Source: Escherichia coli
Lineage (GTDB): Bacteria > Pseudomonadota > Gammaproteobacteria > Enterobacterales > Enterobacteriaceae
Strand: one strand, 5' to 3'
Assembly: GCF_003334255.1 (NCBI RefSeq)
Contig: NZ_QOWU01000148.1
Length of the DNA stretch: 1,812 nucleotides
The notes beneath the pieces are model-generated. The model saw only the letters and a program-made list of their open reading frames with translations. It was not told where the DNA came from and did no database searches. Made by a program: the position numbers and the translations under genes. The first letter of the stretch is position 1; every line of letters begins with the position of its first letter. Positions 2 through 1,812 of the stretch are shown in pieces.

Positions 2-1812
2 AAGCACAAACGCGAGAATCCGCCCACGGTGGTATCGGAAGCCATGGCAGAACTTCGCGCCCTGCCCTCGTTTCTTGCCAGTCCGCTCATCCGGGACCTG
101 GCTCGCCTGAGCCGCAAACAGGAGAGCGCACGCCGGGAAGGGCTTAAGAATAACAGCGCATATGCGGCGGATAACTTCGTTCGTCATGGGCTGCGTGCCC
201 GCCTGAAACGTATCGCCCGTGTGAATGAACGCTTTGCCACCCCGGCCTTTAAGGCCACCGCCGCCCGCGAACGGCTGGATGAACTGCTTATACTGCCGCA
301 GCTGAGCCGTGACGAAATCCAGCACCTTGCCACCCTGACCGCCACCGCGTTTTCCGCCGCACTGGAGCGCGCATGTGATGAGATCATCGAAAAGACCGGC
401 AGGGGTGACGATGACCTGTTCACCTGGTTACTGACCTACCAGTCACTGGCACACATGGCGTTAAAACTGGGTATCACGCCACCCTGCTGGCCGTCGCTGG
501 AAATCAGGCCAGACCGCCGCACCGCCCCCAACCCGGAACGGGTGCCGGGTGCGGTCATGCGCCTTTCCTGTGCGACATGGTGGAACAGTCAGTTAAGACA
601 CCTCCGGGACATCTGGCGTGAAGAGCTGTTACGCGCCGCAGGTCTGGTGTCACGTAAGACATCGGTATATATCAGCCATGAAGCGTTACTGGACTGGCGC
701 GAAAAACGCCAGCGCACCCGCGATTTTCTGAAGGCCTGGGACATCGAGAACGAAGAGGGAGAACGGTTCAGCCTTGAGGATATCTACTGGGCAGGTCTCT
801 CTAATCCGCGTAACCGCCGTAACGAGATGATGACCTGCGCCCGGGGAATGGAGCAGGTCGCCGAAGCACGCGGCGACGTGGCGTTTTTCGTCACCGTCAC
901 AGCCCCTTCCCGTTTTCACAGCGTGAACGATGACGGCAGTCTGAACCCGAAATACTGCGGGGCAACGGTACGCGATGCCAGTGATTATCTGGTTTACCGC
1001 TTTTTCGCCGCCGTCCGCAGGGCCATCGACAAGGCCGGGCTGGGCTGGTACGGCGTGCGCACAGTGGAGCCCCACCACGACGGTACACCGCACTGGCACA
1101 TGCTGGTATTCACCAGCCAGGAAAACGAAGCCCGTATCACTGAAATCATGCGCAACGCCGCCATCAGGGAGGACCGCGCAGAGCTGGGTGATGATATCTC
1201 CCCGCGTTTTAAATGCGAAAAAATCGACCCGGCAAAAGGCACACCGACAAGCTATATCGCGACCTATATCGGTAAGAACCTGGACGCCAGCGCCTTCATG
1301 GGAAATGACCCGAAAACCGGCAAACCTTACATCGATAAGGAATCAGGCAAAACCATGGCCGAAACCGTGGAGAACGCCATCGGCTGGGCAGGCCTTCACC
1401 GCATCCACCAGTTCCAGTTCTTCGGTATCCCGCCCCGCCAGGTATGGCGCGAACTCCGCCGCCTTGCCGGGCAGATGGCCCGTAACCCGACTGCCCCACA
1501 GCGTCTGGACCATGACGACATTGACGCCATACTGGCCGCCGCCGACGTGGGATGTTTTGCCACCTATATCACCCGCCAGGGTGGTGTGCTCATTCCCCGC
1601 AACACGTACCTGGTCCGCACCGCATACGAAACTGCCGAAGAGGCCAACGACTACGGCGAATTCCCGCAACGCATTTACGGCGTCCGCGCCCCGTTACTCG
1701 GGGAGCGCTACACCATATGCACCCACCCGGACACCTGGAAACTGGTCAGAAAAGAAGCGAAAGCCGACAACAGCACGGACGAGGATTTTGACGTTGGGGG
1801 CGGCTTCGCCGC
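2..1812 (+). CDS. Replication initiation protein, rolling-circle HUH nicking endonuclease of the phage P2 gpA / 186 A family ('replication endonuclease'); partial, open at the 3' end and probably at the 5' end
   Basis: Seen in sequence: frame 2 is open for 603 consecutive codons with no stop (manual translation begins KHKRENPPTVVSEAMAELRALP and ends TDEDFDVGGGFA). It contains, in canonical order, motif 1 FFVTVTAP (881-907), the HUH motif HWHMLVF (1091-1111) and the paired-tyrosine motif YIATYIGK (1253-1276). Every ORF in the supplied track overlaps this frame on the other strand or in another frame. Established knowledge: this motif order with a Y-x-x-x-Y catalytic pair is characteristic of superfamily I rolling-circle initiators (phiX174 gpA, P2 gpA). 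Inference: P2 gpA is ~760 aa with the catalytic tyrosines around residue 450 (from memory); the pair here is at window codons 418/422, so the true start is likely a few tens of codons upstream and the stop a few hundred nt downstream. An in-frame ATG at 44-46 is a possible but unproven start. Confidence 0.9.
1091..1111 (+). other. HUH metal-binding motif (His-hydrophobic-His followed by hydrophobic residues) within the replication initiator CDS
   Basis: Codons cac tgg cac atg ctg gta ttc translate to H-W-H-M-L-V-F in the CDS frame, preceded by EPHHDGTP. The position between motif 1 and the tyrosine motif matches the canonical layout of rolling-circle Rep proteins. Confidence 0.75.
1253..1267 (+). 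other. Paired catalytic tyrosine motif (Y-x-x-x-Y) of the rolling-circle initiator
   Basis: Codons tat atc gcg acc tat translate to Y-I-A-T-Y, followed by I-G-K-N. Two tyrosines separated by three residues and followed by a lysine two residues later match the phiX174 gpA / P2 gpA active-site arrangement (established knowledge; alignment not run). Confidence 0.7.

Follow-up and report, generated by a model that had tools for sequence, protein, structure and literature searches.

Interior of a gpA-type replication endonuclease gene of a P2-like enterobacterial prophage, ending 2 nt before the core of a predicted replication origin

Which gene does a stretch of DNA belong to when a single frame runs through it and past both of its ends, with neither a start nor a stop inside, and is that gene likely to be functional? 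This was the question raised by the window, as we call the whole 1,812-nt stretch of DNA analysed here. Almost certainly, it is the middle part, 603 codons long, of a gene that encodes a functional replication endonuclease of the gpA type and belongs to a P2-like (Peduoviridae) prophage of an enterobacterium, most probably Escherichia coli or one of its near relatives. This gene has been described and annotated before, and the window shows no departure from its family. As a routine phage replication gene, annotated by RefSeq in dozens of E. coli genomes, it matters little by itself, and the points of wider interest (an origin core, the hairpin before it, and a possible recombination joint) are found only at the 3′ edge of the window or just past it.

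Coding status, family, and catalytic motifs

Translation of the window gave a stop-free frame of 603 codons on the forward strand, while the remaining five frames were interrupted by 9–31 stops each. At the base composition of the window (60.0% GC), any one codon is a stop with a probability of 0.031, and a run of 603 open codons would arise by chance with a probability of ~5e-9. The GC content of the three codon positions in this frame (63, 47, and 70%) is typical of coding DNA. Between the window and an E. coli allele with 80% DNA identity to it, the third codon position took 230 of the 357 substitutions, and the differing codons comprised 175 synonymous and 103 nonsynonymous ones, with both frames open. 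Because of this third-position excess, and because the frame stays open in that allele, we regard it as a coding sequence subject to purifying selection. The nearest full-length counterpart is that of locus L001 (17744–20257, 837 aa), in which the window corresponds to codons 86–688 of 837. The features located in the window are listed in Table 1, and residues are numbered along the 603-codon translation.

Table 1. Position of the features found in the window
Feature	Position (nt)	Strand	Basis or detail
gpA (replication endonuclease) ORF, interior	2–1812	+	No stop; 98.8% DNA identity to NZ_CP116067 CDS WP_271290489.1
N-terminal all-helical region, aa 1–103	2–310	+	Outside the Pfam domain, which starts at aa 104
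Phage_GPA (PF05840) domain, aa 104–429, holding the HUH nuclease core	311–1288	+	Pfam
Rep motif 1, FFVTVT, aa 295–300	884–901	+	Aligns with P2 FITLTAP and 186 FYTLTAP
Metal-binding HUH region, PHHDGTPHWHML	1070–1105	+	H364-W365-H366 at nt 1091–1099
Motif 3, YIATYIGK, aa 418–425	1253–1276	+	Y418 at nt 1253–1255, Y422 at nt 1265–1267, then K425
Conserved C-terminal alpha/beta region, aa 430–590	1289–1771	+	No Pfam cover; common to P2 and 186 gpA
Mosaic crossover interval, 15 nt common to both alleles	1736–1750	+	100-nt identity bins, 3′ ends compared
Hairpin GCGGC-ttc-GCCGC, directly 5′ of the origin nick-site core	1800–1812	.	Five perfect pairs ending at nt 1812

A preliminary description, made from the letters of the window, had proposed a gpA-like rolling-circle initiator of the HUH type, and this was borne out by Pfam, by PHROGs, and by BLASTP against P2 and 186. 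The Pfam family Phage_GPA was matched with an E-value of 2.9e-106 (score 355.6) over model positions 1–320 of 321, and the next Pfam matches were far weaker (REP_ORF2-G2P, E-value of 8e-5; Helitron_like_N, 0.11). In PHROGs, the match was to phrog_91, "nicking at origin of replication" (E-value of 4.8e-218, aa 6–590). The identity to P2 gpA was 33% over 590 aa (E-value of 2e-76) and that to 186 gpA was 38% over 509 aa (2e-96). The two results named beforehand as contrary to the proposal, namely no match to Phage_GPA or best matches among relaxases or transposases, were not obtained. No NCBIfam family was matched by the window protein, and a sequence search of solved structures gave no match.

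The structure predicted with AlphaFold (AF2; pLDDT of 85.4) contains the HUH nuclease fold, and its top PDB matches are HUH nucleases. In this model, the N-terminal part is all-helical to ~aa 245, with a pLDDT mostly of 82–96 in these helices after the first 10 residues, and is followed by an alpha/beta nuclease core and by a further conserved alpha/beta region that extends to ~aa 585, beyond the Pfam cover. The first 103 residues are weakly conserved with respect to P2 and 186, the alignment showing gaps there and residues that are extra in the window's lineage. Conservation continues past the Pfam domain, as the PHROG match covers the C-terminal region to its last residue and the BLASTP alignments to P2 and 186 reach aa 584–603. 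In this region, W462, Q470, F471, R483-E-L-R486, and Q526-G-G528 are invariant among 28 sequences, and the region presumably binds DNA or a partner.

The same alignment of 28 sequences, which includes P2, 186, P88, and Cartapus, was used to judge the conservation of the catalytic motifs. From the N to the C terminus, the window protein carries motif 1, the HUH motif, and the tyrosine motif, the order of the Rep class of the HUH superfamily; the stop-free frame and the ordered motif 1, HUH, and Y-x-x-x-Y read from the letters are thus all confirmed. F296, T298, and T300 of motif 1 are invariant. So is the stretch E356–H366 with the exception of position 363 (E356-P-H-H-D-G-T362, H364-W-H366), and P2 and 186 have the same residues throughout it. 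Y418, Y422, and K425 (Y-x-x-x-Y-x-x-K) are also invariant, the two tyrosines aligning with Y450 and Y454 of P2 (YIAKYISK) and with Y442 and Y446 of 186. The three-motif Rep organisation, with Y-x-x-x-Y followed by Lys as in the window, is also that of the phiX174 gene A protein and other two-tyrosine HUH Reps; the phiX174-type Reps differ from the gpA of the window in the types and sizes of their genomes. In P2 A, both motif-C tyrosines belong to the active site (PMC3986222, citing Odegrip & Haggard-Ljungquist 2001), and for this protein the same source cites Koonin & Ilyina 1993.

By homology with P2, the window protein would act as a rolling-circle initiator of the HUH superfamily in which the H364/H366 pair holds a divalent metal. 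One of Y418 and Y422, which are one helical turn apart, would cut one strand of the origin and remain covalently attached to the 5′ phosphate, and the free 3′-OH would prime host-driven strand-displacement synthesis. The second tyrosine would then cut the regenerated origin and close the round. The origin itself would be located inside the 3′ third of gpA, where the short hairpin of Table 1 is followed by the core CCTTGGACTCGTGGCAATAACTGTCCCC. What we infer from P2, whose gpA nicks the origin within its own ORF and binds the 5′ end covalently (PMC8537503), is the nicking, the covalent linkage, how the two tyrosines share the work, and the use of this site as an origin. Site-specific single-strand nicking, covalent 5′-phosphotyrosine attachment, and cis-preferential action are known for P2 only (PMC8537503).

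Genomic location, relatives, and GC content

By megablast, the gene was found in 62 of the 5,426 complete E. coli genomes, in all of which it is annotated as "replication endonuclease". All of the 74 places that it occupies in E. coli are chromosomal, and none is on a plasmid. Fourteen genomes carry it at 95–99% identity to the window, the best at 98.8%. In strain DETEC-S792, the full gene (2,514 nt, 837 aa) is part of a complete integrase-bounded P2-like prophage beside chpBS-ppa. Upstream of it in this prophage are an integrase, an HTH repressor, Cox, small early genes, an exonuclease, and a Dam methylase, and downstream are MarR, SSB, the portal, the terminase, the GPO scaffold, a P2-family capsid, lysis genes, and tail genes. 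This context was read from the 98.8%-identical copy, as the window carries no flanking genes, and it agrees with the P2-like phage or prophage replication module to which the preliminary description had assigned the window. The description was also right in seeing a well-described family rather than a novel system, the gene being already annotated in RefSeq. The RefSeq proteins WP_271290489.1, WP_115736862.1, and WP_152659921.1, all from E. coli prophages, are encoded by what is effectively the same gene, with 97–98.8% DNA identity over the entire window, but differ from it in its final ~60 nt, which match the L006-type allele (WP_126502581.1).

Among 50,697 phage records, megablast gave no DNA-level match to the window. 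At the protein level, there were at least 383 matches in the phage collections, and all those listed are phage replication proteins. Among the matches listed, the nearest are those of Citrobacter phage Shae_phiSM, P88, and other members of Xuanwuvirus (~57% identity), followed by Cartapus and numerous Klebsiella and Salmonella prophages (~44%). The closest deposited phage proteins, those of P88 (Xuanwuvirus, YP_009113059.1) and of the Elveevirus Cartapus, retain these identities (57% and 44%) over the entire window. Both have exactly the same 28-nt origin core as the window's lineage, with a hairpin immediately before it, and differ from that lineage in the length of the post-origin tail, the P88 gene encoding 940 aa.

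P2 gpA (NP_046795.1, 761 aa) and 186 A (NP_052289.1, 694 aa) belong to the same Pfam family and are collinear with the window to its end, from ~aa 17 and ~aa 98 of the window, respectively. They have the identical EPHHDGTPHWHM motif, the same tyrosine pair, and the same conserved C-terminal region, and their origin is at the same place in the gene, behind a small hairpin and ending in CAATAACTGT. Unlike them, the window's lineage is longer (837 aa) and shows an N-terminal insertion, an insertion of NDPKTGKP past the tyrosine motif, and a different post-origin tail; on the nick-proximal side of the origin core, it reads CCTTGGACTCGTGG where P2 reads CCTCGGAGTCCTGT. The earlier label "P2/186-type" is therefore correct at the level of the family but not at that of the genus, the identity to either gpA being only 33–38%. 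Since P88 and Cartapus are closer than P2 and 186, "Peduoviridae-type" fits better. The gene can be used as a marker for Xuanwuvirus-related P2-like prophages.

The high GC content of the window had been taken as a sign that its host has a higher GC than E. coli, a suggestion that finds no support, the gene being present in 62 complete E. coli genomes. In L001, the gene has 58.7% GC, compared with 52.7% in the rest of the prophage and 52.8% in the host flank. When 1.75 kb of gpA 5′ of the origin was compared with the surrounding 5–12 kb at 19 loci from other enterobacterial species, gpA was 3–13 GC points above its surroundings in 18 of them. The window's lineage, at 59–60%, also differs in this respect from the gpA of P2 (53%) and 186 (52%). 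The high GC is a trait of this lineage of the gene and carries little information on the host, which cautions against judging hosts from the local GC of a phage gene.

Alternative readings of the window

As the window shows no start and no stop, its copy of the gene could be an inactive remnant: a gpA pseudogene, in a prophage undergoing decay, whose truncation or frameshift is located beyond the window. Damaged relatives that keep the exact origin core do occur, such as those of Raoultella (L039, with a frame change), Regiella (L027, with 52 open codons upstream), and Fukatsuia (L023, with a stop 11 codons downstream), and the deposited record of phage 503458 splits gpA into three CDS. Nevertheless, the window has 603 codons without a stop and every catalytic residue intact, its nt 100–1700 are 99–100% identical to full-length 837-aa genes in complete prophages, and its substitutions are distributed as in coding DNA under constraint, all of which makes a pseudogene very unlikely. 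It is extremely unlikely that the window conceals an additional gene or RNA, such as the antisense ORF of 137 aa at 686–1099. Several antisense ORFs of 79–137 aa do exist, and three of the four that were tested, including the one at 686–1099, stay open in the 80%-identical allele, while the fourth (184–423) acquires an internal stop. However, long antisense frames are expected opposite a gene of 60% GC with 70% GC3, the antisense peptides vary heavily between alleles, the substitutions fit the sense frame, and no E. coli record annotates a gene there. These ORFs were therefore rejected as hidden genes, being the default of a 60% GC gene, unannotated, and unconserved as peptides between alleles. 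Scans of the window for Rfam families (E-values up to 1), tRNA or tmRNA, promoters, terminators, and repeats gave nothing above chance.

That the window encodes some other HUH enzyme (a conjugative relaxase, an IS91/Helitron-type transposase, or a plasmid Rep) is so improbable as to be practically negligible. Phage_GPA beats every alternative by ~100 orders of magnitude in E-value, the places in E. coli are without exception chromosomal, the copy inspected is in a P2-like prophage, and the phage-collection matches described above speak for a phage replication protein. In the HUH superfamily, relaxases carry their catalytic tyrosine or tyrosines N-terminal to the HUH motif, and Reps carry them C-terminal to it; in the window, the HUH motif precedes the tyrosines, which is the order of the Reps and not of the relaxases. 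A conjugative relaxase (MOB) was rejected on this order, together with the lack of any relaxase match in Pfam and of any plasmid location, and a Helitron or IS91 transposase was rejected because the Helitron_like_N match is negligible and the structural likeness is confined to the shared HUH core. The annotation of the 837-aa protein includes no helicase domain.

Allelic mosaic and origin core at the 3′ edge

The gpA-type gene is mosaic around the origin core, and alleles reassort there. The window is 99–100% identical to the L001 allele over ~nt 100–1700, the positions that distinguish the alleles are still of the L001 type up to nt 1735, and nt 1751 to the end match the L006 allele without a difference. 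None of the 5,426 complete E. coli genomes has this recombinant 3′ end (the best shows 93% identity over nt 1600–1812), and an exact search of IMG/VR with a junction-specific 45-mer found nothing. The full-length alleles show the same kind of structure: L001 and L004 are 97.7% identical upstream of the core and 68% downstream of it, and L001 and L006 are 81.8% identical upstream and 99.3% downstream. Across intact lineages, the tails that follow the core range from ~120 to 280 codons.

In P2, the nick is annotated at NC_001895:29892, within GCGCCTCGGAGTCCTGTCAATAACTGT, at codon ~620 of 761 and thus inside gene A, a position given by the NC_001895 annotation and by secondary literature. The record of 186 has the origin at the homologous spot, also inside gene A. 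The homologous sequence in the window's lineage is GCACCTTGGACTCGTGGCAATAACTGTCCCC, at codons 689–698 of 837, and its first two bases are the last two of the window (GC). The nick site is predicted ~5–6 nt further on, just outside the window, and by analogy with the P2 nick at GCGCCTC/GG it is expected within CCTT/GGA. The 28-nt core starts 2 nt past the window, which itself holds only the preceding hairpin, and 2 nt after the window's end the source contig should read ACCTTGGACTCGTGGCAATAACTGTCCCC. In L001, L004, and L006, the core is found at codon 690 (of 837) and lines up with the nick annotated for P2, and in every full-length relative it falls within the 3′ third of gpA.

The 28-mer is identical in L001, L004, L006, P88, Cartapus, and phage 503458, which constitute unbiased evidence because they were fetched independently of the core pattern. 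A pattern scan with one genome per species found it exactly in 34 species of Enterobacterales, a count ascertained on exact matches and therefore silent on the frequency of variant cores. The genera include Escherichia, Citrobacter, Klebsiella, Raoultella, Enterobacter, Buttiauxella, and Kluyvera, and also Pantoea, Erwinia, Tatumella, Edwardsiella, Regiella, and Fukatsuia. In intact genes with enough upstream DNA, the 28-mer is ~660–700 codons into a gpA-like ORF that is 41–57% identical to the window. Column conservation drops to 40–80% a few bases to either side of the core. Conservation of the nick site among Peduovirinae was reported previously (PMC8537503); here, the predicted embedded origin keeps the same DNA sequence even between proteins whose identity has fallen to ~42%, and the mosaic breakpoint falls at the same place.

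The place homologous to the hairpin of the window is occupied in P2 by GCGGC-atc-GCCGC. In 20 of the 23 distinct upstream contexts, a perfect stem of 5 bp or more ends no further than a few bases from where the core starts, and in 19 of those 20 the stem ends on the first base of the core; as a background, 3.1% of 4,003 positions in the same genes reach a perfect stem of this length. The test was anchored on position, since the differing stem and loop registers of the lineages defeat a single structure on the ungapped MAFFT alignment. One of the three contexts that failed, that of the Fukatsuia locus, shows by eye a 5-bp stem whose 7-nt loop is outside the limits of the scan.

The stems include the compensated forms GTGCGGC/GCCGCAC, GGGCGGC/GCCGCCC, GGGCGAC/GTCGCCC, GGACGGA/TCCGTCC, and GGGCG/CGCCC, with AGGGCGC/GCGCCCT in 186, and the encoded peptide varies along with them (GFAA, GPAA, DPVA, GFSV, and GACA). 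Such compensated changes, as read from the aligned genes, point to selection on the DNA structure. In the protein, the proposed consequence of stem compensation is that G-G-x-A-A would become G-D-P-V-A or D-G-F-S-V.

A tentative reading, which we put somewhat on the doubtful side, is that the hairpin and the core define an initiator–origin specificity class apart from that of P2 and 186 (CCTCGGAGTYCTGTCAATAACTGT), that this site may double as a joint for recombination where prophages swap the nuclease body and the variable C-terminal tail of gpA, and that the DNA structure may dictate the protein sequence there. If true, this would leave the identity of the gene unchanged and would be a modest addition to the biology of P2. 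When ~100 nt around the origin were folded as single-stranded DNA, the overall energy was not unusual (z of −0.7 to +0.4), and the small local hairpin alone stood out.

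Origin core and adjoining hairpin

The predicted replication-origin nick-site core, a 28-nt sequence embedded in the 3′ third of gpA, starts 2 nt past the end of the window. At the DNA level this core is 100% identical in the phages P88, Cartapus and 503458 and in 34 enterobacterial species, while the gpA proteins of these same phages and species share just 41–57% identity with the gpA of the window. Next to the core, a stem of 5–7 bp was retained in 20 of the 23 distinct contexts, as compared with 3.1% of background positions. Substitutions in the hairpin stem are compensated, and the encoded amino acids change with them.

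Features of the window and of L001, the closest full-length E. coli prophage copy
Feature	Location	Strand	Remarks
gpA-lineage nick-site core, CCTTGGACTCGTGGCAATAACTGTCCCC	window 1811–1812 and beyond; L001:19808–19838		aligns in register to the P2 nick annotated at NC_001895:29892
Hairpin GCGGC-ttc-GCCGC	window 1800–1812		adjoins origin core
Mosaic junction	window 1736–1750		window switches from L001-type to L006-type allele
Antisense ORFs, 82–137 aa	window 686–1099, 994–1242, 1343–1669	(−)	remain open in the 80%-identical E. coli allele
MarR-family regulator and SSB	L001:20254–21562		downstream of gpA
DUF6645 gene, 657 aa	L001:30616–32586		between lysis and tail genes of the prophage

Mosaic structure of gpA

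The segments of gpA located 5′ and 3′ of the origin core were found to be reassorted across the E. coli alleles L001, L004 and L006. Between L001 and L004, identity is 97.7% upstream of the core versus 68% downstream, whereas for L001 and L006 the corresponding values are 81.8% and 99.3%. The latter two alleles are near-identical over the first ~300 nt of the gene, with ~75–80% identity in the middle.

Base composition and gene content

In 18 of the 19 species loci compared, the GC content of gpA was 3–13 points above that of the adjacent DNA, and in L001 it was ~6 points above that of its own prophage. The antisense ORFs, which are not annotated anywhere, are most likely a by-product of the high GC3 of the sense frame. 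No gpB homologue is annotated in the L001 prophage.

Disrupted and unusual copies

In some loci gpA appears to be disrupted, with the exact 28-nt core kept: that of Raoultella sp. (L039) has a frame change, that of Regiella insecticola (L027) only 52 open codons upstream, and that of Fukatsuia symbiotica (L023) a stop 11 codons past the core. In the deposited record of phage 503458 (L009, NC_049341.1), gpA is represented by three CDS (1504–3702), apparently as a result of frameshifts or sequencing errors; despite this split, the core is intact (L009:3247). A P88-like gpA fragment (L026), which shares 67% identity with the window across 221 aa and carries the enterobacterial core, was also found on a 3.7-kb contig (JAIJJM010000298.1) of a MAG labelled as the actinobacterium Collinsella sp., in which this contig was probably mis-binned.
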